Assembly: GCA_048499675.1 (NCBI GenBank)
Contig: JASNZL010000001.1
Coordinates: forward strand, 58,747 to 122,746
Reading direction: 5' to 3'
Origin: Candidatus Zambryskiibacteriota bacterium
GTDB taxonomy: Bacteria > Patescibacteriota > Minisyncoccia > Phycocordibacterales > WO2-35-19
DNA: 64,000 bases
This document shows positions 5,067-30,259 of this stretch, in pieces. A program made the translations under genes and the position numbers. Position 1 is the first letter of the stretch. Every line of letters begins with the position of its first letter. A model generated the notes under the pieces. That model had not been told where the DNA came from. It did no database searches and was given only the letters and a program-made list of their open reading frames with translations.

Positions 5067-6362
5067 ATGAGTTTTCTCAATAAACAAAATTATCATTTTA
5101 TAGGGATAGGCGGAATTGGAATTTCAGCTATTGCCAAAATGTTATTACTGGAAGGAAAGACTGTATCCGGATCAGACCTTTCTAATTCCGACATCATAGA
5201 AGATTTGAAAAATTTGGGTGCCGACATAAACCTAGACCAAAACGAGAATAATATAAAAAAAGAAATAGAGGTTGTCATATACACAGTTGCAATAACAGAA
5301 AATAATCCCGAACTAAAAAAAGCAAGGGAATTACAAATCATTTGCAAAACATACCCAGAAGCACTTGGAGAACTTTCTGCTATAAAGAAGACGATAGCAA
5401 TATCAGGAACTCATGGTAAAACAACTACAACAGCGATGATTGCTCACATCATGAATAAACAGAAACTAGATCCGACTGTAATTGTTGGATCAAAAATACT
5501 TGGCGAGAATTCAAATTTTAAAAAAGGCAACAGTGATTATTTAGTTGTTGAGGCTTGTGAGTACAAGAGATCCTTCCTTAATTTAAATCCAAGTATTTTG
5601 GTCATAACAAACATAGAAGAAGACCATTTGGACTACTACAAAAACCTTGATGATATACTCTCTGCATTCAAAGAACTCACAGGGAGAGTTTCTGAAAATG
5701 GTTTTATAATTACGGACCTAAAAAGTGAGAATATAAGAACTGTTTTAAAAGAAGCAGACCTAAAAAATGGAGTCAAAGTGCTTGATTATAATGATATAGA
5801 AATCAAGGATATAATTTCTGTCGAAGGTGAACACAATTTAATGAATGCAAAGTCAGCTATAAAAACACTTGAGAGCCTGTCGGTAGATAGAGAAAAATCC
5901 ATACTGGCCCTCAATGATTTCAGTGGTACTTGGCGCAGAATGGAGTATAAAGGGGAGAAAGATGGTAATTTATATTTTGATGATTACGCACATCACCCAA
6001 CTGCAATAAAACTTACCCTAAAAGCTCTTAAGAACAAATATAAAGACAAGAAAATTGTTTGTGTATTTGAACCACATCAACAAAGCAGAACAAGAGAATT
6101 TTTTGATGATTTTGTTGAGGCAGTTGGAACAGCGGATTTTACTTTTATTGCTCCAATATTTATAACAAGAGAAATTGACGATTTGGTTACAACAAATATC
6201 AAGTTAAGTAATGCAATAAATAACAATGGGAACGTTGCCTTTCCAGTAAACAACGTTTCAGAACTCAAAAAATATATAGAGAAAATTAGCAACAATAATC
6301 TATGTGTCGTACTTATGGGCGCGGGCGATATTTATAAGTGGACACCAAATTTGCTAGAATAG
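5067..6362 (+). CDS. murC: UDP-N-acetylmuramate--L-alanine ligase (MurC).
   Basis: FIGIGGIGISAIAKMLLLEGKTVSGSD is the MurC N-terminus. P-loop ISGTHGKTTTTAMIAH. Confidence 0.8.
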   Translation: MSFLNKQNYHFIGIGGIGISAIAKMLLLEGKTVSGSDLSNSDIIEDLKNLGADINLDQNENNIKKEIEVVIYTVAITENNPELKKARELQIICKTYPEALGELSAIKKTIAISGTHGKTTTTAMIAHIMNKQKLDPTVIVGSKILGENSNFKKGNSDYLVVEACEYKRSFLNLNPSILVITNIEEDHLDYYKNLDDILSAFKELTGRVSENGFIITDLKSENIRTVLKEADLKNGVKVLDYNDIEIKDIISVEGEHNLMNAKSAIKTLESLSVDREKSILALNDFSGTWRRMEYKGEKDGNLYFDDYAHHPTAIKLTLKALKNKYKDKKIVCVFEPHQQSRTREFFDDFVEAVGTADFTFIAPIFITREIDDLVTTNIKLSNAINNNGNVAFPVNNVSELKKYIEKISNNNLCVVLMGAGDIYKWTPNLLE

Positions 6363-6369
6363 AAGATAT

Positions 6370-6840
6370 ATGAAAAAAGAAGCACGAGTACAAAAAATAG
6401 AACCAATGTTGTTTGAAACATATATCGCTAGTATAAAAAATAGTGTTGGTTCAAAAATGTTTAGACAGATATATGCAAAAATAAACAGTAAGAAAATAGA
6501 TATAACAGAAAACGGTAATCTTTCTTGTGCATACTATGTTTCTTCCCTACTTTTGATTTTTAAACTCGTAAGCGAGGTACATGCAACAGTTTCGGGCACA
6601 GTAAGAGATCTAAAAGAGTCGGGCTGGATAGAAATAGCTAAGCCAAAAATTGGTTCTATTTTGGTATGGTCTAAAAAAGATTTCGGTAAAGGAGATTTAC
6701 ATAGCCATATTGGATTCTATATTGGTAAAGATGAGGCTATAAGCAACAGTTATAAAAAAAGAATTATAGAAAAACATCACTATACTTACAAAAACACAAG
6801 AAAAATAGAGATGATTTTTTGGAACAAAAAACTATCTTAA
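6370..6840 (+). CDS. Small papain-fold (CHAP / NlpC-P60-like) domain protein, a putative cell-wall amidase.
   Basis: 156 aa. Candidate catalytic Cys (NLSCAYYVSS) and His (GDLHSHIGFYIG) lie ~70 aa apart. Located directly downstream of murC. Confidence 0.3.
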   Translation: MKKEARVQKIEPMLFETYIASIKNSVGSKMFRQIYAKINSKKIDITENGNLSCAYYVSSLLLIFKLVSEVHATVSGTVRDLKESGWIEIAKPKIGSILVWSKKDFGKGDLHSHIGFYIGKDEAISNSYKKRIIEKHHYTYKNTRKIEMIFWNKKLS

Positions 6841-22933: not shown

Positions 22934-24427
22934 ATGGAAGAAAAAAATAGTCAAAACCTAATACAGAGGCCTCCTGTTGTAGTAATAATGGGACACATCG
23001 ACCACGGCAAATCAACACTTCTTGATTATATAAGAAAGGCTAATTCTGTTGACAAAGAAGCCGGTGGAATCACTCAACATATTTCTGCGTACGAAGCAGA
23101 AGTGTTGACTGGTGACCAAAAAAGAACAATTACTTTCCTAGACACTCCGGGGCACGAAGCTTTTTGTTCAATCAGACAAAGAAGCTCAAAGGTGGCAGAC
23201 ATCGCCGTCCTTGTGGTCTCAGCAGAAGACGGAGTCAAACCTCAAACAATAGAAGCTTATAAATGTATTCAATCTGATTCAATACCATTTATAGTTGCAT
23301 TAAACAAAATAGATAAAGCTCCAAACAACGTAGACAAAATAAAACAAAACCTTGCAGAAAATGAAATATTTGTAGAGGGTTGGGGCGGTAGTATTCCAAT
23401 CGTTCCTATTTCTGCAAAAACCGGCCAAGGTGTTCCAGAACTATTAGAAATTATCCTACTTCAATCAGATATGGAGGATCTGAAAGCAAACCCAAAAAAC
23501 AACGGGGAAGGTTTTGTTATTGAATCAGATCTAAATCCAAAACAAGGAATATCAGCAACTCTTGTAATTAAAGATGGCGCGATACAATCGGGAATGTATG
23601 TAGCATGTCCTGGAGCATATGCACCAACAAGAATTATGGAAGATTTTAAAGGTGCTAAAATCTTGAAAGCGACTTTTTCTAGTCCCATCAGAATAACAGG
23701 CTGGTCTAATTCCCCATTAGTAGGAAGCACTTTCAAAACATTTAATACAAAAGAAGAAGCTTCTAAATATTCACTTAGTATTTCAAACAACAGAGAGCAA
23801 ACAGAGGAGATTCTAGAAAACACTGCAGTGCTTCCAATTATTTTAAAAGCAGACACACATGGCTCTCTTGAAGCCGTAATCCATGAATTAAATAAAATAG
23901 GTAGCGATAAAATAATTGCAAAAATTGTATCCAAAGGAATTGGTTCTATAGGAGAATCTGACATCAAAACAGCAAACATCAAAAAAGATATAGTTGTTGG
24001 ATTTAATGTAGGAATTGACAAAAATGCCGAGTCTCTTGCTTTAAGAGAAAATATCGAACATAAAACATTTAAAATTATTTATGAGCTAGTTGATTTCGTC
24101 AAAGAAAGAATGAAAGAAGCAACCCCTGTAACTATGATAGAGACCACAACTGGCGAGGCTAAAATACTAAAAAACTTTAGCAAAACAAAAGACCTACAAG
24201 TAATTGGTGGTAGACTTACAACTGGAATATTAAAAAACAACAGTATAGTAAAAATATTTAGGAGAGATTTCCAAATAGGCGAAGGTAAGGTAAAAGAAAT
24301 CCAGACCCAGAAAATCAAAACAAACGAAGTAAAAGAAGGGGAAGAATTTGGGATGATGATAGACTCCAAAACGGAAATAGTACCCGGAGACATATTGAAG
24401 CAAATATCACTAATAAAAGAAGAATAA
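22934..24427 (+). CDS. infB: Translation initiation factor IF-2 (short form without the N-terminal extension).
   Basis: G-domain VVVIMGHIDHGKSTLLD, DTPGHEAF, ALNKIDK. Followed immediately by rbfA, the conserved infB-rbfA arrangement. Confidence 0.8.
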   Translation: MEEKNSQNLIQRPPVVVIMGHIDHGKSTLLDYIRKANSVDKEAGGITQHISAYEAEVLTGDQKRTITFLDTPGHEAFCSIRQRSSKVADIAVLVVSAEDGVKPQTIEAYKCIQSDSIPFIVALNKIDKAPNNVDKIKQNLAENEIFVEGWGGSIPIVPISAKTGQGVPELLEIILLQSDMEDLKANPKNNGEGFVIESDLNPKQGISATLVIKDGAIQSGMYVACPGAYAPTRIMEDFKGAKILKATFSSPIRITGWSNSPLVGSTFKTFNTKEEASKYSLSISNNREQTEEILENTAVLPIILKADTHGSLEAVIHELNKIGSDKIIAKIVSKGIGSIGESDIKTANIKKDIVVGFNVGIDKNAESLALRENIEHKTFKIIYELVDFVKERMKEATPVTMIETTTGEAKILKNFSKTKDLQVIGGRLTTGILKNNSIVKIFRRDFQIGEGKVKEIQTQKIKTNEVKEGEEFGMMIDSKTEIVPGDILKQISLIKEE

Positions 24428-24428
24428 A

Positions 24429-24767
24429 ATGCATCCTCCTAAAAAATACAAAGACGAAAAATTTGTATCTTTAATCACAAAATTTGCTGGTGAATATTTG
24501 ACGGTTGAATCAGGTTTGAATTCTATGATTACAGTTACTCGTGTTGATGTATTCGATAGAGGCAGGAGAGCTACTATATACTTTACAGTTCTCCCAGAAT
24601 CAGAAGAAGCCAAAGCTTTTGATTTCCTAAAAAGAAAAAGGAGGGATTTTAGAAAGTTTGTGATGTCAAAAAAAACATTCGGCTTTGCTCCAAGTTTTGA
24701 TTTTGAAGTTGACCACGGAGAAAAAAATAGACAAAGAGTTGATAATTTACTTATGGAAAGCAATTGA
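24429..24767 (+). CDS. rbfA: Ribosome-binding factor A.
   Basis: 112 aa. Position directly after infB. ITVTRVDVFDRGRRATIYFTV is an RbfA-like KH fold. Confidence 0.6.
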   Translation: MHPPKKYKDEKFVSLITKFAGEYLTVESGLNSMITVTRVDVFDRGRRATIYFTVLPESEEAKAFDFLKRKRRDFRKFVMSKKTFGFAPSFDFEVDHGEKNRQRVDNLLMESN

Positions 24768-24808
24768 AATAAAATTAGAAAAACTGTAAGCTAAAATATG
24801 TCGGTATT

Positions 24809-24880
24809 GGGCGTCGTGGCCAAGTGGTAAGGCATGAGTCTGCAAAACTCTTATACGCGGGTTCGATTCCCGCCGACGCC
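24809..24880 (+). tRNA. tRNA-Cys (anticodon GCA).
   Basis: GGCGTCGTGGCCAAGTGGTAAGGCATGAGTCTGCAAAACTCTTATACGCGGGTTCGATTCCCGCCGACGCCT. Anticodon loop CTGCAAA; 72 nt. Confidence 0.8.
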
Positions 24881-24919
24881 TCATTTATTAAGTATGAAAA
24901 TACATAATAAATAATATAT

Positions 24920-25004
24920 GCCCGAGTGGCGGAATTGGTATACGCAGTCGACTTAAAATCGGCGGCCGTAAGGCTTGTGGGTTCAAGTCCCACCTCGGGC
25001 ACCA
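24920..25004 (+). tRNA. tRNA-Leu (anticodon TAA) with a long variable arm and encoded CCA.
   Basis: GCCCGAGTGGCGGAATTGGTA...GTCGACTTAAAATCGGC...GGGTTCAAGTCCCACCTCGGGCACCA. Its 3' end is the att site of the downstream element. Confidence 0.85.
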
Positions 25005-25160
25005 GAATGGAACTTAACGGTTTTTCGGAGACCGAATTGTGGGCGGCGCAAAGCGCCGCCCACTGATTTCCCCCCATTTTTCCAAACGAATTTGGAGCGT
25101 CGCCTTCGGCGACGCGCACTTTTCTTTCGGCGAGGAGGAGGTGCGAATCAGAAGCAATTT
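24997..25160. repeat. IR-a, left copy. A ~165-bp perfect inverted repeat that includes the att core (tRNA-Leu 3' end) plus ~130 bp of downstream sequence.
   Basis: The reverse complement of 26695..26860 is identical to 24997..25160 by direct comparison (accagaatggaacttaacggtttttcggagaccgaattgtgggcggcgcaaagcgccgcc...gaggaggaggtgcga). Confidence 0.8.
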
Positions 25161-25237
25161 GATTCATAGTATTTGCTTTACAAAAAGAATTTTTGCTATA
25201 ATGAATTTGCGTTCAACTTTTCGGGTCGTCTTTTTTA

Positions 25238-26890
25238 ATGGCCGTCCTAGCCAATTCGAGGCGACTTGAGTTGAACGCACTAGGGCGGCCATTTAAGTTG
25301 AGCGCAAAATATATGGAAAAACAAAAATTCTTTTTGTATGCTCGCAAGTCAACTGATGTCGAGGACAAGCAGGTTCTTTCGATTGAAGCACAACTCACCG
25401 AATTGCGGGCGTATGCACGCGAGAATAATTTGGAAATTTCCGCCGAAATAGTGGAAAAGCAATCTGCAAAATATCCGGGTCGCCCTTTGTTCAACAAGAT
25501 GATGGATGACATTGAAAAGAACGGCGGAAATATTCTCGCGTGGAATCCCGATCGTCTCGCCCGCAATTCGGTGGACGGAGGAAGGATTATTTATCTCCTC
25601 GACACAGGGAAACTTGTGAGCCTAAAATTTCCAACATTTTGGTGCGACAACACATCGCAGGGGAAATTTATGTTGAATATGGCATTTGGCCAAAGCAAAT
25701 ACTATGTGGATTCTCTTTCCGAAAATACGAAACGCGGACTTCGCCAAAAAGTAAGAATGGGTATATTTCCAAGTCAAGCGCCTTTGGGATATCTCAACGA
25801 TTCGAGAACAAAGACGATTGTTGTAGAAAAGAAAAAATCTCGCATTGTGCGCTTGGCTTTTGAGAGATATGTCAAAGGTAATCAACGGCTAGAAGATATT
25901 GCCGAATTTTTGGCGAAGTCCGGCGTTACAACCAGAACCGGAAGGAGAATCTCCAAAACTAGAGCGTCTTTTATCCTTTCCAATCCGTTCTATATCGGAC
26001 TATTCAAATATGGCGGTGAAATCCACGAAGGAAAGCACGAACCAATCATTTCAAAGAAACTTTTTGACGAAGCGCAAGAAATGCTACGCAAGCGCGGACA
26101 ACCTGAACGCAAGCCACAGAATGAACCACAACCTTTCTGTGGTCTCATTTCCTGCGCTTCTTGCGGAATGATGATAACTGCCGAGAACAAAACGAAGCGA
26201 CAGAAGAATGGCAATGTTCATCACTATATTTACTATCGTTGTACCAAAAAGAGAAAAGATTTTAAGTGTAACGAGCTGTCGCTTCGTTCTGAAGAAGTAG
26301 ACAAGCAGTTATCATCTCTCATTCAAAAAGTTTCTTTGCCCAAAGACTGGGCGGAAGAATTATTGAAAATGGCGGAAAATGACCACAAAAAATCCGCCCA
26401 GTCTTTGACTGCTTGCGTGAAAGAAAAAGAGGAAATGATTTCTTCTCTCTCGCAAAAACTGGAGCGACTTCTTAATGGCTATCTCGACCAAATAATTGAT
26501 CAAGTGGACTATACTTCACAGAAATCAAAACTGTTATCTGAAAAGAAGTCGCTCGAAGAAGAAATCTTTACTTTTTCACACAAGCAGAATGATTGGCTCG
26601 CACCCTTTCAATCTTGGCTAAAATACGCTCAATCCTTGGACAAAATTGCTTCTGATTCAGACCTTTTTGCTAAAAAGGTCTGGGCCAAAGAAATCTTTGG
26701 CTCGCACCTCCTCCTCGCCGAAAGAAAAGTGCGCGTCGCCGAAGGCGACGCTCCAAATTCGTTTGGAAAAATGGGGGGAAATCAGTGGGCGGCGCTTTGC
26801 GCCGCCCACAATTCGGTCTCCGAAAAACCGTTAAGTTCCATTCTGGTGTCTTTATTTTACCAAGCTCGCACCTTTTTTCAAAATCGGTGA
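25238..26890 (+). CDS. Large serine recombinase (resolvase/invertase catalytic domain, recombinase domain, zinc ribbon and coiled-coil).
   Basis: N-terminus YARKSTDVEDKQVLSIEAQLTELRAYAREN contains the catalytic Ser. Zinc-ribbon CGLISCASCGM...YYRCTKKRKDFKC. ~480-550 aa. The last ~60 codons run into inverted repeat IR-a', so the true stop may lie earlier. Confidence 0.8.
   Translation: MAVLANSRRLELNALGRPFKLSAKYMEKQKFFLYARKSTDVEDKQVLSIEAQLTELRAYARENNLEISAEIVEKQSAKYPGRPLFNKMMDDIEKNGGNILAWNPDRLARNSVDGGRIIYLLDTGKLVSLKFPTFWCDNTSQGKFMLNMAFGQSKYYVDSLSENTKRGLRQKVRMGIFPSQAPLGYLNDSRTKTIVVEKKKSRIVRLAFERYVKGNQRLEDIAEFLAKSGVTTRTGRRISKTRASFILSNPFYIGLFKYGGEIHEGKHEPIISKKLFDEAQEMLRKRGQPERKPQNEPQPFCGLISCASCGMMITAENKTKRQKNGNVHHYIYYRCTKKRKDFKCNELSLRSEEVDKQLSSLIQKVSLPKDWAEELLKMAENDHKKSAQSLTACVKEKEEMISSLSQKLERLLNGYLDQIIDQVDYTSQKSKLLSEKKSLEEEIFTFSHKQNDWLAPFQSWLKYAQSLDKIASDSDLFAKKVWAKEIFGSHLLLAERKVRVAEGDAPNSFGKMGGNQWAALCAAHNSVSEKPLSSILVSLFYQARTFFQNR
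26695..26860. repeat. IR-a', the inverted copy of the att-core region on the distal side of the recombinase gene.
   Basis: See IR-a. It contains the inverted att core aaaaaccgttaagttccattctggtgtc. Confidence 0.8.
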
Positions 26891-27262
26891 TGTTTCGCAC
26901 GCTCCACGCGCCTTGTGATTTGCAACCGCCAACTACGCTCGGCAACACCAAAGAAAAATGTCTCTTACAACTTTGGTTTTCGCGCAGGATTTTTCTGAAA
27001 AAGGAAAGGATATTTTTCTTTGGTGTTCTGCCCTCAATGCTTCGGGCAGGTGGCGGGGCTACTATGCGGACTCGGTTTTGCCAAACTATTTTTCTGGGGA
27101 TTTGGATTTGGCAAAACCTCGGCTGAATGTTGCCCGCCCGCAGAAAGGGGTCTGGGGAATGAATGCGGGCGGGCTTGTATAAAACCCAAAATTGTGGTAT
27201 GAGTATGGCAGAAGAAATCCTGGTGGATTTCTGAAAATTGCACATTTACAACCCAAAAAGGA
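26862..27262. repeat. IR-b, left copy. A ~400-bp inverted repeat whose inner end carries an SD sequence and an ATG-GAA start, ending at the first cargo gene.
   Basis: The reverse complement is identical to 32945..33356. The inner end reads ...acccaaaaaggaggtgaattATGGAAtgg, and the mirrored copy ...ccattATGGAAtcc on the other side. Confidence 0.8.
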
Positions 27263-27270
27263 GGTGAATT

Positions 27271-28008
27271 ATGGAATGGTTTCATCGCCTATACTTCGGT
27301 ACGTGGCAACTTAGCGGGCAGTTTAAGAACCTGTCTCCTGCCTACATCGAATCGCTACTACTTTTCGCCATCAGCTCCGGTATTCGTCGTTTTGATACGG
27401 CGGCCGTCTATGGTGGAGGCAAGGTAGAGGAGATGCTCGGCGCATTCTTGCCGGAAGATGCAGTCATTGTGACCAAAATTCCGGCAATCAAAAAACCCAA
27501 GCTTGAAGTCGCTGCACCAATTAATGGATTCTATACACCAGATCATCTTGATCGAGGTGTTGAGGGTTCGTTACGTCGACTCAAGAGAACACAACTCGAT
27601 ACTGTCTTGTTGCACAACTGGCTGCCATCTTGGTCGTCAGATGCAAGCAACATTCTTCATCATCTACAAGGTATGAAGAGCAAAGGCATTGTCCGTAGAG
27701 TAGGTATTTCTCTGCCGAATGATTTCTCTGCGCACATCGATGATGAGGTTCTACCTCTTATTGATGTGGTTGAAGCCCCTTACAACCCAGATCAGAAATG
27801 GGTGCTTGAACAGCTCCCAAACTTCATTGATTTAGGAAGGGAAGTGCTTCTGAGGAGTTTATTCGATCAAGGGAAGCTGCTCGCTGCATACTCCGCGGAA
27901 TCGCTTGTCGCTGACGCAGCGAAACTCGGAACATCCGTGGTTATTGGCATGACGACGGAAAATCAGGTAACACAAAACATCAACCACCTGAAAGGAGAAA
28001 CCCAGTGA
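27271..28008 (+). CDS. Aldo/keto reductase family oxidoreductase.
   Basis: 245 aa. RRFDTAAVYGGGKVEEMLGAFL is a typical AKR N-terminal motif. The gene is GC-rich. Confidence 0.55.
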   Translation: MEWFHRLYFGTWQLSGQFKNLSPAYIESLLLFAISSGIRRFDTAAVYGGGKVEEMLGAFLPEDAVIVTKIPAIKKPKLEVAAPINGFYTPDHLDRGVEGSLRRLKRTQLDTVLLHNWLPSWSSDASNILHHLQGMKSKGIVRRVGISLPNDFSAHIDDEVLPLIDVVEAPYNPDQKWVLEQLPNFIDLGREVLLRSLFDQGKLLAAYSAESLVADAAKLGTSVVIGMTTENQVTQNINHLKGETQ

Positions 28009-28916
28009 ACAAAAACCGGAATGCCGAAATTCTTGCTCACCTGAACGATTCTGTTGTTGTTCAGAACATCATCGTCCGTCATCGCGTCAAACAGATCACC
28101 AGACGATTCTTCTGTTCTCATGGCTTCATCGAAGTGGATACTCCCATCTTGGGGGATCCTCTAGATGAATATACAACGAGCCATTTTGCCGTTCGAGGCA
28201 GAGGAGGTTCGTACGCTCTTCCGCAGTCGCCACAGCTGTACAAACAACTGGCTGTAATCTCCTCGTTGGAGAAATACTTTCAGTTTCCGCATTGTTTCCG
28301 CGACGAAGAGTACGATCCGAGAAGAACTGATCAGTCGCCGGAGTTCATGCAAATTGACTTCGAACTGCGCACAACAAGTGTCGCTGAAGTCAGAACCATT
28401 GCAGAAAACCTAATGAAGAAGATCTGTGACGAATTGGGCAGTCAATGCTCAGTGCCGTTCCCGACAATCGATGCTGTCGAGTGTGTCCAGAAATACGGAA
28501 CTGACAAGCCGGATATGAGGCAATCTCCAGAGGAGTATGCTTTCCTATGGGTTGTTGACTTCCCGCTTGTGGAAACCACGGAAGGCGGAAAGTCCAAGCC
28601 GACACATCACCCCTTCGCTTTGCCTATTTTTGAAGGTGAGAACCTTCCTGAAGATCTAAGCGCGGTTCGTACTGCTTCTTACGATCTCGTGTTAAACGGC
28701 ATGGAGATTGGGGGTGGTGATTTGCGAATTCACTCAGAGAATTTGCAAAGAGAAGTCATCAGACAATTGGGCTTCAATGAGGATCAATTCGCACTTCTTC
28801 TTGAGGCGCTTAGTACGGAAACGACACCACCCCACGGAGGAATGGCAATTGGACTCGATCGGCTCGTGATGCAACTCACGCGGACGAAAAAAATCAACGA
28901 CGTCAACTTCTTTTGA
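28005..28916 (+). CDS. Truncated bacterial-type aspartyl-tRNA synthetase catalytic core (class IIb). It lacks the N-terminal anticodon-binding OB domain and the GAD insertion domain, making it an AspRS-like paralog.
   Basis: YALPQSPQLYKQLAVISSLEKYFQFPHCFRDEEYDPRRTDQSPEFMQIDFE matches AspRS motif 2 (ALPQSPQLFKQ...CFRDEDLRADRQPEFTQID). Motif 3 is PPHGGMAIGLDRLVMQLT. Only 303 aa. Confidence 0.65.
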   Translation: MNKNRNAEILAHLNDSVVVQNIIVRHRVKQITRRFFCSHGFIEVDTPILGDPLDEYTTSHFAVRGRGGSYALPQSPQLYKQLAVISSLEKYFQFPHCFRDEEYDPRRTDQSPEFMQIDFELRTTSVAEVRTIAENLMKKICDELGSQCSVPFPTIDAVECVQKYGTDKPDMRQSPEEYAFLWVVDFPLVETTEGGKSKPTHHPFALPIFEGENLPEDLSAVRTASYDLVLNGMEIGGGDLRIHSENLQREVIRQLGFNEDQFALLLEALSTETTPPHGGMAIGLDRLVMQLTRTKKINDVNFF

Positions 28917-28929
28917 AAAGGAGCTAAAA

Positions 28930-30237
28930 ATGCAACGAGCATTGATCAAAGAACTCGGATCCAAGATCGGCGAGACCGTTCGGATCTGCGGATGGGTGGG
29001 ATCGCTCCGCGATCAAAAGCGGATGCAGTTCCTTATTGTCCGTGACCACACCGGCAGTGCACAGGTAGTGCATGAAAAGTCGGCAAACGCCGAACTAACG
29101 GAAGCAATTGCCGGCCTCACGTCCGAAAGCGCAGTGGAAATCATCGGCAAGGTTATTGCCAATCCGGTGGTCAAGCTGGGCGGACTGGAGGTGGTGGCCA
29201 AGTCGGTGAACGTCGTCAGCAAAGCGGAAGCGCTTCTGCCGTTCGGCGAGAATCCGACTAGCGAAACCAGGCTGGATTGGAGATTCCTGGATCTGCGTAC
29301 TCCGCAGAACCTGCTCGTCTTCAAAATCCAGACAGCGGCCGAGCATGCCATGCGTTCGTTCTGGACAGCGGAGGGGTTCATCGAGATGCACTCCCCGAAG
29401 TTCATGGGCAGTGCAAGCGAGTCCGGCGCGGAGCTCTTCGAGGTGAAGTACTTCGATCGCAAAGCGTATCTCGCTCAGTCGCCTCAGTTCTACAAACAGA
29501 TGGCGATGGCGGCGGGGTTCGACCGTGTGTTCGAGATTGGACCGGTTTTCCGAGCCAATCCGTCTTTCACTTCGCGACACGACACGGAGTTCACCAGCGT
29601 GGACGTCGAAATCTCGTGGGTTGACTCTCACGAGGACGTCATGCAGCTTGAGGAGCGTTGGCTTCGTCACGTGCTTCAGGTGGTGAAAGCCGAGTACGGC
29701 GAGGAAATCAAGGCGACGTTCGGCACGGAGATCGTGGTCCCCGAGCTTCCGTTCCCGCGCGTGACTATGGAAGAGGCATACAACATCCTCGACCAGATGG
29801 GTCACCGCATCGAGCGAGGCGAGAAGGGTGACCTCGATCCGGAGGGTGAGCGGCTCTTGTGTCGGCACTTCCACGATAAGACCGGCCACGAGTTCGTCTT
29901 CGTCACCGAGTATCCTGCTGTGGTCCGGGCGTTCTACCACATGCGTCCCGAAGGCAAACCCAATCTCACCAAGAGCTTCGACCTTCTCTGGAAGGGGCTT
30001 GAAGTGACAACAGGAGCGCAACGGGAGCATCGCTACGAGATCCTGGTGGAGCAAGCCAAGGAGAAGGGGCTCTCGCTTGAACCCATCCAGTACTATCTGG
30101 ACTTCTTCCGCTACGGCTGTCCGCCGCACGGCGGCTACGGCTTCGGCCTCACCCGCATGCTCATGGTGATGCTGGGCGCGAAAAGCGTGCGCGAGGTGAC
30201 GTACCTCTACCGAGGCGTCAACCGACTCACTCCGTAA
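28930..30237 (+). CDS. Aspartyl- or asparaginyl-tRNA synthetase, archaeal/eukaryal-type class IIb (435 aa, N-terminal OB anticodon-binding domain plus catalytic core).
   Basis: N-terminal VRICGWVGSLRDQKRMQFLIVRDHTGSAQVV is an OB fold. SPQFYKQMAMAAGFDRVFEIGPVFRANPSFTSRHDTEFTSVDVE is motif 2. GCPPHGGYGFGLTRMLM is motif 3. Confidence 0.7.
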   Translation: MQRALIKELGSKIGETVRICGWVGSLRDQKRMQFLIVRDHTGSAQVVHEKSANAELTEAIAGLTSESAVEIIGKVIANPVVKLGGLEVVAKSVNVVSKAEALLPFGENPTSETRLDWRFLDLRTPQNLLVFKIQTAAEHAMRSFWTAEGFIEMHSPKFMGSASESGAELFEVKYFDRKAYLAQSPQFYKQMAMAAGFDRVFEIGPVFRANPSFTSRHDTEFTSVDVEISWVDSHEDVMQLEERWLRHVLQVVKAEYGEEIKATFGTEIVVPELPFPRVTMEEAYNILDQMGHRIERGEKGDLDPEGERLLCRHFHDKTGHEFVFVTEYPAVVRAFYHMRPEGKPNLTKSFDLLWKGLEVTTGAQREHRYEILVEQAKEKGLSLEPIQYYLDFFRYGCPPHGGYGFGLTRMLMVMLGAKSVREVTYLYRGVNRLTP

Positions 30238-30259
30238 CAAAAGGGGTAGGGCAGATGCT

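Follow-up and report, generated by a model that had tools for sequence, protein, structure and literature searches.

A probable serine-integrase island at a Patescibacteria tRNA-Leu gene, with a second, inverted attP and paired inverted repeats

Introduction

Large serine integrases, among them those of phiC31, Bxb1, A118/LI and SPbeta (SprA) as well as CcrAB of SCCmec and XisF, combine Resolvase, Recombinase and Zn-ribbon domains and exchange DNA at a short core within an attP/attB/attL/attR grammar, with no target duplication. Their P- and B-type half-sites share a common motif at a shifted distance from the core. The locus analyzed here, in a 64,000-nt stretch of DNA that we call the window, and its relatives share all of these features. 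In contrast to the known enzymes, however, the islands use many different tRNA genes as targets, entering at the 3′ end (C72-A73-C74), and their attP overlaps the last 21 recombinase codons, so that integration swaps the C-terminal tail. They also carry a second, inverted attP with arm duplications of 147 nt and 120-430 nt, they have no conserved partner gene that could serve as a recombination directionality factor (RDF), and their relatives are essentially absent from viral contigs.

Other systems are similar in part. Invertases of the Hin/Gin/Cin/Pin group are likewise serine recombinases encoded inside inverted repeats with crossover sites and are found in both orientations, but the island recombinase is large, its sites double as integration sites, and a flip leaves promoter connections unchanged. 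The yeast 2-micron plasmid has FLP/FRT inside 599-bp inverted repeats, and plastids undergo inverted-repeat flip-flop. The circle predicted for the island would resemble both, with two long (~570-nt) inverted repeats carrying the recombinase target and one unique segment encoding the recombinase; unlike the 2-micron plasmid, the island has a serine rather than a tyrosine recombinase, has no identified replication genes or origin, and lives integrated at a tRNA gene. In SSV1-type integrases and in the integration-dependent immunity mycobacteriophages BPs and Brujita, attP lies inside a gene and integration changes the product. The island similarly alters the C terminus of a protein that it encodes, its recombinase losing a conserved 13-aa tail, but those systems use tyrosine integrases and a single attP, whereas the island keeps a spare in-frame tail in its internal attP that inversion could rejoin.

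Tyrosine-integrase tRNA islands (Islander-type elements and tycheposons) are, as far as the portion of the tycheposon preprint considered here extends, also small, cargo-carrying elements of streamlined genomes, located at tRNA 3′ ends, with relics of older insertions accumulating at the same tRNA (bioRxiv 10.1101/2020.12.28.424599). In that portion, large serine recombinases are reported in 27 of 937 elements and an inverted-repeat architecture is not described (bioRxiv 10.1101/2020.12.28.424599). By contrast, integration of the present island leaves no duplicated tRNA fragment and its recombinase is a large serine recombinase (LSR); a domain search found no tyrosine integrase in the island, and a tRNA 3′ direct repeat does not mark its ends. 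The tRNA-targeting serine-integrase islands described here are very common in Patescibacteria and apparently undescribed, a full-text literature search having returned no earlier account of the family or its architecture.

Results

Attachment Sites and Crossover Point

We consider it probable, as a grade for the entire explanation developed below, that the 8.4 kb at 25003-33361 form an island whose own LSR integrated it into the 3′ end of tRNA-Leu(taa). The island would comprise two modules, each within its own inverted repeat: an LSR module between P′ arms (IRa) and a cargo module between P arms (IRb). The sites that delimit them are as follows.

24920-25004, plus strand: tRNA-Leu(taa), called by ARAGORN and Rfam; its 3′ end serves as the B half-site for integration
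25000-25002, plus strand: attL core CAC (tRNA C72-A73-C74), junction of tRNA and P′ arm; identity of near-identical relatives stops exactly here
26823-26887, minus strand: complete internal attP, inverted relative to attL and attR, made of the a′ half-site, core GTG (26846-26848) and the c (P) half-site TCTTTATTTTACCAAGCTCGCACCTTTTTTCAAAA; overlaps the last LSR codons
33359-33361: attR core CAC, junction of the IRb right arm and host
33362-33538, plus strand: non-island stretch beyond attR, holding insert Z, then a tRNA-Leu fragment and a relic half-site
33362-33496: Z, a small tRNA-associated insert outside the island
33497-33538: right copy of a "42-nt direct repeat," a displaced older tRNA-Leu 3′ fragment with a 23-nt relic P′ half-site

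Judged by their sequence, the three module boundaries are att sites with a common core CAC: attL where the tRNA meets the left IRa arm, an inverted attP where the right IRa arm meets the left IRb arm, and attR where the right IRb arm meets the host. Rather than one attP per element, a second, inverted attP was thus present inside the integrated island and in 45 relatives. A 42-nt direct repeat described as an att core does not mark the right end of the island; the end lies instead at attR, where the right IRb arm finishes in the core CAC. We rejected the direct repeat as attL/attR, its right copy being an older layer 135 nt past the true end. An Rfam scan of 24000-35500 (E ≤ 1) returned tRNAs and a partial RNase P match and nothing else.

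LSR homologues number in the thousands, with 352 loci among GTDB species representatives and over 569 among JGI metagenome contigs. Near-identical natural pairs placed the crossover exactly after ...CTGGTG, which is followed by either a tRNA 3′ end or a c half-site in 65 GTDB loci. LSR modules that are 99.8-100% identical part exactly after GGTG in L036 and L159 (tRNA-Arg vs. c), and the same split was found in L146/L149 (c2 vs. tRNA-Arg) and L082/L087 (c vs. c2). The LSR crossover adjoins the 3′ end of a tRNA gene in 95 related loci, 45 integrated relatives have an attP-type junction upstream of the LSR, and the a′/c junction is also the C terminus of "attP-form" homologues. At the far side, the distal c arm of seven complete relatives stops at the same core against unrelated host DNA. 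A single grammar, with tRNA or c′ before CAC and a or host after it, held for every junction, with exchange at the short core and no target duplication. In 80 of 90 tRNA flanks a TCGAACC-like motif begins at position +14, and in all 33 c half-sites it begins at +18; such an offset is of the kind expected between LSR attB- and attP-type half-sites.

These junctions reverse the direction of copying that had first been implied. It is at the 3′ end of the LSR gene that the element's own attP lies, which thousands of homologues conserve; the IRa copy next to the tRNA is the P′ arm that stayed behind at attL. We also considered the successive insertion of two TIR-bounded circles, with an LSR circle entering a tRNA/c junction. 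This model would need CAC on the top strand at 26846-26848, where GTG is observed, and was rejected because CAC there violates the core polarity of all junctions.

Two Abutting Inverted Repeats

25000-25146, no strand: IRa left arm (P′ arm "a"), a perfect repeat with half-site CACCAGAATGGAACTTAACGG
25147-25163, no strand: 17-nt IRa extension matching 26641-26657; its motif AAATTGCTTCTGATT also flanks the upstream arm of relatives
26658-26682, no strand: perfect 25-nt hairpin, CAGACCTTTTT GCT AAAAAGGTCTG, at the inner boundary of the right IRa arm, within 45 nt missing from the left arm; also in L084
26702-26848, no strand: IRa right arm (a′), coinciding with the 3′ end of the LSR ORF; homologues align through the region
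26846-27272, no strand: IRb left arm (P arm "c"), perfect over 26850-27269
32935-33361, no strand: IRb right arm (c′), whose last bases are the attR core CAC at 33359-33361, the true right end of the island

Both inverted repeats reported by the first-pass annotation exist, with slightly different limits. IRa is perfect over 147 nt (25000-25146 vs. 26702-26848) and IRb over 420 nt (26850-27269 vs. 32938-33357); with one mismatch (26849), IRb reaches the core and extends to 427 nt (26846-27272 and 32935-33361). The two repeats abut and overlap by the 3-nt core GTG (26846-26848). About 1e-79 perfect 147-nt inverted pairs would be expected by chance in 64 kb, and the half-site motif of the left IRa arm occurs three times in the whole window. 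A 45-nt segment (26658-26702) that contains the hairpin is unique to the right copy of IRa. Beyond it, 17 further nucleotides pair (25147-25163 vs. 26641-26657), which accounts for the length of 165 bp originally given. A Logan contig from run SRR21762701 (L085) is 100% identical to window positions 27240-32967, which cover the cargo together with 31-33 nt of either IRb arm; the cargo/arm junctions are therefore reproduced by an independent assembly.

The Recombinase and Its Tail

25173-25312, plus strand: candidate LSR promoter, TTGCTT-18 nt-TATAAT (25173-25202), and structured 5′ leader
25313-26890, plus strand: LSR gene, 525 aa, with codons 464-512 in the right IRa arm and codons 513-525 (native tail SLFYQARTFFQNR) in the left IRb arm

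The ORF does read into the repeat, as was first noticed, crossing the right IRa arm and continuing through 13 codons of the left IRb arm. The protein has an N-terminal resolvase catalytic domain with the nucleophile serine (PF00239, residues 7-150, E = 1e-21) and a YARKST motif at the N terminus, followed by Recombinase (PF07508, 174-261) and Zn_ribbon_recom (PF13408, 274-334) domains. The nearest solved structure is the A118 integrase, with whose C-terminal domain residues 169-342 align (4kis/6dnw), and NCBIfam models gave CcrB/XisF-like matches with scores under their cut-offs. Thousands of LSR relatives, 70-93% identical, are present in Patescibacteria. A phage or viral origin of the family was rejected; IMG/VR gave one match, 27% identical. 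Exact protein look-ups of the LSR with either start codon gave no match, as expected if other assemblies break in the arms. The LSR module showed no conserved second gene, and no RDF gene was found.

The C termini of homologues diverge directly after ...SSILV, continuing into either peptides read from the antisense strand of a tRNA or a conserved tail, LLYQxRTYFQN, which the window also has. Variation in the tail codons is biased to third positions, and Arg519 is kept through CGN/AGA exchange, a conservation that cannot be fully separated from DNA-level constraint by a binding site or promoter. Upstream, the first ~64 nt of the promoter/leader region are 88-92% conserved in many loci.

Cargo, Promoter-Like Sites, and Structured Elements

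27271-30237, plus strand: cargo operon 1, consisting of the next three genes
27271-28008, plus strand: AKR-like gene
28005-28916, plus strand: truncated bacterial-type AspRS catalytic core
28930-30237, plus strand: full aspartate--tRNA(Asn) ligase
30260-32933, minus strand: cargo operon 2, consisting of the next three genes
31704-32933, minus strand: radical SAM protein
30952-31707, minus strand: 251-aa protein with a DUF4037 hit
30260-30934, minus strand: PepE-like S51 peptidase
26854-26881, minus strand: promoter-like site inside the c half-site, TTGAAA-16 nt-TGgTAAAAT (10/12 matches, TG-extended), pointing outward across the core; a putative promoter
33326-33353, plus strand: second copy of the promoter-like site, pointing out of the island
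27071-27174, plus strand: two-hairpin structured element in the IRb arm, stems 27071-27082/27110-27122 and 27132-27142/27164-27174
33033-33136, minus strand: second copy of the two-hairpin element
25039-25063: GC hairpin in the left IRa arm
25097-25115: terminator-like hairpin in the left IRa arm, followed by a T-run

The island's seven ORFs include no replication gene for autonomous replication. The first cargo gene on each side had been described as starting inside the repeat behind an identical Shine-Dalgarno. The Shine-Dalgarno AGGAGGTGAA is indeed present in both IRb arms (27259-27268 and 32939-32948), but the ATG-GAA-T starts lie just past the perfect part, with spacers that differ by 3 nt. 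Convergent operons driven from IRb are a peculiarity of the window's element; IRb as a dedicated dual promoter fails as a general rule, the cargo of relatives often being unidirectional.

A consensus built from 74 c half-sites retains the hexamers of the promoter-like site. The two-hairpin element, which has no Rfam match, gave nhmmer matches in more than 20 loci, with compensatory changes in 15 of 17 pairs, and the IRa-arm hairpin covaries at five of eight pairs across 27 loci. Four candidate small ORFs in IRb were rejected as proteins: tblastn matches were equally good in several frames, which indicates that conservation is at the nucleotide level. A stand-alone peptide from the left IRa arm was also rejected, its frame being open but its start codon not conserved.

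Orientation States and Module Exchange

In the usual state, found at 45 loci, c′ lies upstream and the tRNA downstream, so that the LSR reads into the tRNA and its conserved 13-aa tail is replaced. The LSR module of the window has the opposite orientation to that of most relatives: it reads into the internal attP and keeps its native tail. This state, with the tRNA upstream and c downstream, is shared with L084 and probably L152; c occurs on both sides in two or three loci and the tRNA on both sides in one or two. Because perfect arms exceed usual assembly k-mers, the orientation of 25147-26701 and of 27270-32937 in the window could reflect the assembler's choice or a population mixture. The same could apply to L083, L087 and L089 from one lake, where an identical LSR module takes one orientation relative to an identical neighbor module in the first and the other in the latter two. 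In L084, however, the arms are only 95.9% identical, and its flipped state therefore cannot be the assembler's choice. The original suggestion that the element is recombinationally active is borne out for the family, in which different partners adjoin near-identical LSR modules exactly at the core and the module is seen in both orientations.

If two equivalent attP sites were used at random, or if modules flipped freely, the LSR would not be expected to point into the tRNA as often as it does (about 45:3), and some selection or mechanistic asymmetry would lie behind this strong bias. It fits an alternative in which the flanks are passive regulatory or insulator cassettes (P′-arm terminators, P-arm promoter and leader) kept identical by gene conversion, the orientation being set at integration by the attP copy used, with no later inversion. 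The covarying terminator-like hairpins of the P′ arm agree with this, as do the promoter-like site and covarying structured element of the P arm. Such a scheme still needs a free form with two attP sites, however, and so shares most of the model preferred here, and it sits poorly with the identical module pair in both relative orientations in one lake. Moreover, any RecA-proficient cell can use perfect inverted repeats of 147-427 nt as substrates for homologous recombination. We regard this alternative as unlikely.

Less credible still is a classical invertible switch, in which an invertase like Hin, Gin, Cin or Pin flips a segment between short sites to turn genes on or off. The recombinase gene does lie inside a segment bounded by inverted repeats that hold its sites, both orientations exist among relatives, and orientation alters the last 13 aa of the LSR. 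Nevertheless, at 525 aa and with Recombinase and Zn-ribbon domains the enzyme is an LSR, whereas such invertases have ~190 aa and a C-terminal HTH; the same sites join dozens of different tRNA genes, which is integration. Flipping also neither connects nor disconnects a promoter, because the LSR promoter travels with the segment and the IRb arms are identical. The invertible-segment architecture that was the main reading of the first-pass annotation is thus not of the small-invertase type, and we consider a switch of this kind very unlikely.

Recurrence and Concerted Evolution of the Repeats

Whether elements in other genomes carry single or double copies had been raised as a check, and both repeats proved to be widespread. 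Among 124 related loci with at least 60 nt of upstream sequence, 109 have an IRa-type repeat around the LSR (median arm 147 nt, arm identity 98%); it is absent in six loci with ample upstream DNA. Where the available sequence reaches far enough, an abutting IRb-type repeat encloses variable cargo, of 1.4-5.2 kb in at least 12 loci, near-complete genomes included. The same 147 nt are only 70% identical (median) between loci, and the ~98% identity within elements therefore indicates concerted evolution of the arms. Both repeat pairs are present in the 0.6-Mb contigs L072 and L073; in the complete chromosome L048 (CP060229), the upstream P′ arm adjoins a tRNA rather than a P arm.

This recurrence also bears on the idea that an assembler walked shared graph nodes twice in opposite directions, as it might with integrated and excised forms or strain mixtures. 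In the window, the two repeats are 100% identical and abut each other. Many related contigs end inside arms at k-mer-like lengths (55, 77, 99, 127 and 141 nt), and L065 has a suspicious 4352-nt perfect palindrome around the LSR. An artefact is nonetheless extremely unlikely: 109 loci, sequenced in many studies and put together by many assemblers, show the same architecture, L048, L072 and L073 among them, the left arm has a 45-nt deletion relative to the right copy, and the arm limits coincide with the core and half-sites. Arms in most loci are 93-99% rather than 100% identical and hence exist as two physical copies. The arms also explain why so many Patescibacteria contigs end beside the LSR gene.

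A one-off att × att inversion, duplication or gene conversion in this genome alone, the alternative first offered and one that the perfect identity of both arm pairs would suit, is just as improbable, given that the double repeat, with its inner boundary at the same LSR codon, holds the same positions across LSRs 63-93% identical and that arms co-vary within elements while differing by ~30% between them; the double repeat is conserved family-wide and homogenized by concerted evolution.

Discussion

In the integrated-island model that we favor, the attP of the family overlaps the last LSR codons, and integration would exchange the C-terminal tail. As the arms form inverted repeats inside the cores, either module could be inverted with no site destroyed, presumably through homologous recombination of the arms or LSR action at the cores. 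Precise attL × attR excision would yield a circle with two inverted attP sites dividing two unique segments, either of which sites could be used for the next integration, and would leave an empty site reading ...CTCGGGCAC/AAATTTATAG, with the slash marking the crossover. LSR and cargo modules can also be re-assorted at the cores, as is observed among the relatives. The tail swap, the P′-arm terminators and the outward promoter of the P arm may have a regulatory role.

No circular contig was found among related loci, whose contigs break in the arms, and the circular form was not observed. The closing junction of the predicted circle would be indistinguishable from the internal attP. Canonical LSRs lacking a directionality factor recombine attP × attB only. 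In the islands, which have no conserved second gene or RDF, excision and P × P or L × P reactions are consequently assumptions of the model.

A bolder proposal, which we offer tentatively and hold to be doubtful as a whole, is that the LSR is not limited to attP × attB and that P′-arm sites recombine with any P-type or tRNA-type partner. The modules would then be interchangeable bricks for cassette exchange, inversion and array building as in L087, and the integration-dependent swap of the conserved 13-aa tail, undone when the LSR module flips, would act as a switch of directionality or activity in place of an RDF.

This work defines the att sites, crossover and architecture of what seems to be the dominant integrative element of Patescibacteria, hosts with tiny genomes and few recognized routes of gene exchange. 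Because the LSR family targets a universal and conserved sequence, the tRNA 3′ end, the many natural attP/attB pairs that the work provides are of interest to genome engineering with integrases. The inverted spare attP, the modules bounded by inverted repeats and the tail swap together suggest testable ideas about how serine integrases may control direction and shuffle cargo without an accessory factor.

Structure of the Island and Its Inverted Repeats

The ~8.4-kb island starts at the tRNA-Leu(taa) 3′ end and has a G+C content of 48% (25003-33361) versus 34-38% in its flanks. Its large serine recombinase (LSR) has 525 aa with Resolvase, Recombinase, and Zn-ribbon domains; the closest solved structure is A118 integrase, and the closest NCBIfam models, CcrB and XisF, both score below cut-off. 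Homologs number in the thousands; the best 120 are 71-93% identical, and all named ones belong to Patescibacteria. The LSR 5′ leader (25203-25312) contains nested hairpins, e.g., TAATGGCCGTCCTAG...CTAGGGCGGCCATTTA, and may form a regulatory structure; the leader in L084, a syntenic member of the related loci and contigs (L-numbers) that we compared with the window, has a different sequence, likewise with inverted-repeat stretches.

The cargo comprises six genes in two convergent operons: an AKR-like gene, a truncated AspRS core, a full aspartate--tRNA(Asn) ligase, a radical SAM gene, a DUF4037 gene, and a PepE-like peptidase. It is "aspartate-themed": the full AspRS is of the non-discriminating type (58% G+C), the second is a 303-aa bacterial-type catalytic core without anticodon-binding and insertion domains, and the PepE-like protein is Asp-dipeptidase-like; the AKR-like protein is shortened to 245 aa. 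Together, these genes might make up a small cassette for biosynthesis or resistance. The island's gene content includes no tyrosine integrase and no replication gene.

Both inverted repeats reported in the first-pass annotation, IRa around the LSR module and IRb around the cargo module, are present with slightly different limits, as listed here (a slash marks a crossover junction).

Features of the island (window positions)
25000: attL, tRNA-Leu/IRa left copy
25000-25146 and 26702-26848: IRa, perfect inverted repeat of 147 nt
25313-26890, plus strand: LSR gene
26846-26848: complete attP in inverted orientation, IRa right copy/IRb left copy
26850-27269 and 32938-33357: IRb, perfect inverted repeat of 420 nt
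27271-32933, both strands: cargo
33359-33361: attR, IRb right copy/host

IRa matches for a further 17 nt (25147-25163 and 26641-26657) after a 45-nt segment, found only in the right copy and containing a perfect 25-nt hairpin, is skipped. IRb reaches the core if a single mismatch at 26849 is allowed, and the two repeats then overlap by the trinucleotide GTG (26846-26848). The chance expectation for a perfect 147-nt inverted pair in 64 kb is about 1e-79. Logan contig L085 (run SRR21762701) is identical to 27240-32967, a span that covers the cargo and extends 31-33 nt into each IRb arm.

The Double Repeat Recurs Across the Family

The first-pass annotation had proposed looking for single, noninverted copies in homologous elements. 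Instead, among the 124 loci where at least 60 nt of sequence precedes LSR, 109 have an IRa-type repeat (9 of the 15 negatives have <200 nt upstream). Its first arm precedes the LSR gene, and its second makes up the final ~147 nt ahead of the core. Among the 78 complete arms, median length is 147 nt and median identity is 98%, with 19 perfect. Between loci, the same 147 nt have a median identity of only 70% (71% for an LSR-body segment of equal length), and therefore, both arms of one element evolve in concert. Outside the upstream arm, 45 loci carry c′, the reverse complement of the P arm, which makes an inverted attP upstream of LSR.

A second repeat of 120-405 nt abuts the first, with a core overlap of 3-10 nt, in at least 12 loci with enough sequence. 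The cargo that it encloses is unrelated and spans 1.4-5.2 kb, and the arm at the distal end meets host DNA at GTG. This family-wide recurrence, which extends to 0.6-Mb contigs, rules out an assembly artifact; it also rules out the one-off event that the annotation had offered as an alternative.

A large share of LSR-carrying Patescibacteria contigs start or end within the 147-nt arm at k-mer-like lengths (55, 77, 99, 127, and 141 nt). Contig breaks in Patescibacteria genomes thus have a systematic source in this family.

Crossover Point and Attachment Sites

LSR homologs fall into two classes that split right after a conserved ...KPLSSILV. The first, to which the window LSR belongs, ends in the conserved tail x-L-[LF]-Y-Q-x-R-T-Y-F-Q-N-[KR]; in the second, the terminal peptides, e.g., PEVGLEPT and RGRGLEPP, come from translating tRNA acceptor and T arms in antisense. 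At 65 loci in GTDB genomes, ...CTGGTG/ leads into either a tRNA 3′ end, from many different specificities, or a conserved sequence c, TCTCTATTGTACCAAGCTCGAACCTATTTCCAAAA. Three natural pairs with LSR modules 99.8-100% identical part ways exactly at GGTG/: L036 (tRNA-Arg) and L159 (c), L146 (c variant) and L149 (tRNA-Arg), and L082 (c) and L087 (c variant). From the C-terminal classes, the junctions, and these pairs, we place attP at a′/c, overlapping LSR codons ~505-525, and the integration target at C72-A73-C74 of tRNA genes.

With the P′ arm (CACCAGAATGGAACTTAACGG...) called a, all junctions seen obey [tRNA or c′]-CAC-[a or host DNA]. The start of a TCGAACC-like motif is at position +14 relative to the core for 80 of 90 tRNA flanks, compared with +18 for all 33 c half-sites. 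In solved LSR-DNA complexes, attP-type and attB-type half-sites differ by an outward shift of a similar kind. L084 has an empty tRNA-Leu(taa) site, GGGCAC/AAAAC, which is compatible with the window attR, AAAG-GCAC/AAATTT.

Contents of the Arms

The P′ arm carries the half-site, a GC hairpin (5 of 8 pairs covarying), and a second hairpin with a T-run after it, which is scored as a terminator when read in the a orientation but not in reverse. Read the other way, the arm codes for an LSR stretch that is rich in indels and poorly conserved. The P arm starts with the half-site encoding the 13-aa LSR tail. Codon entropy sums of 5.9, 4.8, and 8.9 at positions 1, 2, and 3 reveal third-position bias, Arg519 is invariant despite CGN<->AGA changes, and amino acid identity is 0.81 in the LSR frame against 0.70 and 0.65 in the others, which together argue that selection acts on the tail as protein. 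The same 28 nt fit a predicted extended -10 promoter facing outward across the core.

Deeper in the P arm lies a conserved two-hairpin element, with compensatory changes in 15 of 17 pairs and G-U pairs favoring the inward strand; it had zero matches in Rfam. Copies occur at 27071-27174 and 33033-33136 and in the cargo-flanking arms of >20 related loci, and both loops carry TCTGGGGA-like motifs. The element may be a structural motif of RNA or DNA that is new and associated with these islands. The window P arm reaches the Shine-Dalgarno sequences of both operons, whereas in relatives, it ends 12-440 nt short of the genes, which are often unidirectional.

Orientation States and Module Exchange

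Orientation states (loci with both flanks resolved)
LSR toward tRNA, inverted attP upstream: 45 loci
Opposite, tRNA/a-LSR-a′/c: window, L084, and probably L152
P arms on both sides: 2-3 loci (L065, L148, L087)
Two convergent tRNAs, one per side: 1-2 loci (L048, L050)

Where perfect arms exceed k, as in the window itself, a short-read assembler may have picked the path. The L084 orientation is not the assembler's choice, because its arms differ at 4% of positions. Samples from one lake contain a 100% identical LSR module in both orientations relative to a 100% identical neighbor (L083 versus L087 and L089), and the same module has three different partners in L082, L083, and L087.

L087 (1-12297) is a chain of at least four inverted repeat-bounded modules with two different LSR genes (681-2279 and 5243-6790) and, at each boundary, an att-type junction whose orientation alternates. 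In L048 (8481-11514; complete genome CP060229) and L050 (34-1978), an LSR module lies between convergent tRNA genes, an arrangement to be expected had the internal attP recombined with another tRNA gene, either through inversion of the chromosome or through cassette exchange. L065 (5467-15738) contains a 4352-nt perfect palindrome centered on the LSR gene, with cargo and a 276-nt flank in inverted duplicate; this is either a real inverted duplication or an assembler traversing the repeat graph twice.

A tRNA Insertion Hotspot

The 42-nt direct repeat that had been taken as the island end lies 135 nt past attR. It (33497-33538) joins the last 19 nt of tRNA-Leu to 23 nt of the a half-site with two mismatches, so that the displaced tRNA fragment still holds a relic of an older LSR P′ half-site. 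Between attR and this repeat is Z, a ~135-160-nt GC-rich insert with the hairpin GCAAGCAAACTGCTTTGCTTGC; it lies directly 3′ of tRNA genes, and a duplicate of ~20 nt from the tRNA 3′ end comes after it. Three unrelated Patescibacteria loci have Z (window 33362-33538, L017 2206-2406, and L043 2326-2520), the latter two in the absence of any LSR element, and it resembles a miniature element that duplicates tRNA ends, or the scar left by such an element. In the simplest three-step history, an earlier LSR element would have decayed to the 23-nt relic, a small tRNA-end-duplicating insert would have displaced the relic-bearing tRNA end, and the present island would then have entered the restored tRNA.

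At the next tRNA in the cluster, tRNA-Leu(tag), the last 15 nt plus ~77 nt recur 178 nt downstream (34731-35000; 92 nt, 96% identical), by sequence a further tRNA-3′-end duplication. Between the relic site and tRNA-Lys, an AT-rich ORF of 244 aa (33622-34356), whose N terminus weakly matches an HTH, is a separate insertion at the same hotspot, because the two tRNAs are only 17 nt apart in L084.

Comparison with Known Elements

By domain content and site grammar, the island is a large-serine-integrase element. It differs from those described in targeting the tRNA 3′ end, in placing attP within the recombinase ORF, in its inverted spare attP with long arm duplications, in modules that re-assort, and in lacking the partner gene; we found no conserved RDF-like gene in the family's elements. 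Its sole likeness to Hin-type segments is a recombinase gene inside a segment bounded by inverted repeats. A full-text literature search found no account of this LSR family or architecture. The excerpted passages of the tycheposon preprint (bioRxiv 10.1101/2020.12.28.424599) report LSRs in only 27 of 937 elements and do not mention an inverted-repeat two-module architecture.

Proposed Mechanism

At the level of sequence, the compared loci show that the LSR integrates at tRNA 3′ ends with exchange at CAC, that integration via the attP at its own 3′ end swaps the LSR tail, that each element retains an inverted spare attP, that the arms are homogenized, and that modules occur in both orientations with varied partners and breakpoints at the core. 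Precise attL x attR excision would yield a circle made of a 1.55-kb LSR segment and a 5.67-kb cargo segment with two inverted attP sites between them, a putative layout similar to that of the yeast 2-micron plasmid. Integration by either attP would give two isomers, and RecA acting between arms or LSR acting at cores could invert modules afterward; such inversion would spare all sites because the repeats lie within the cores. The 45:3 bias points to the tail-less, tRNA-convergent state as stable, which would make the native-tail configuration of the window the active or transient form.
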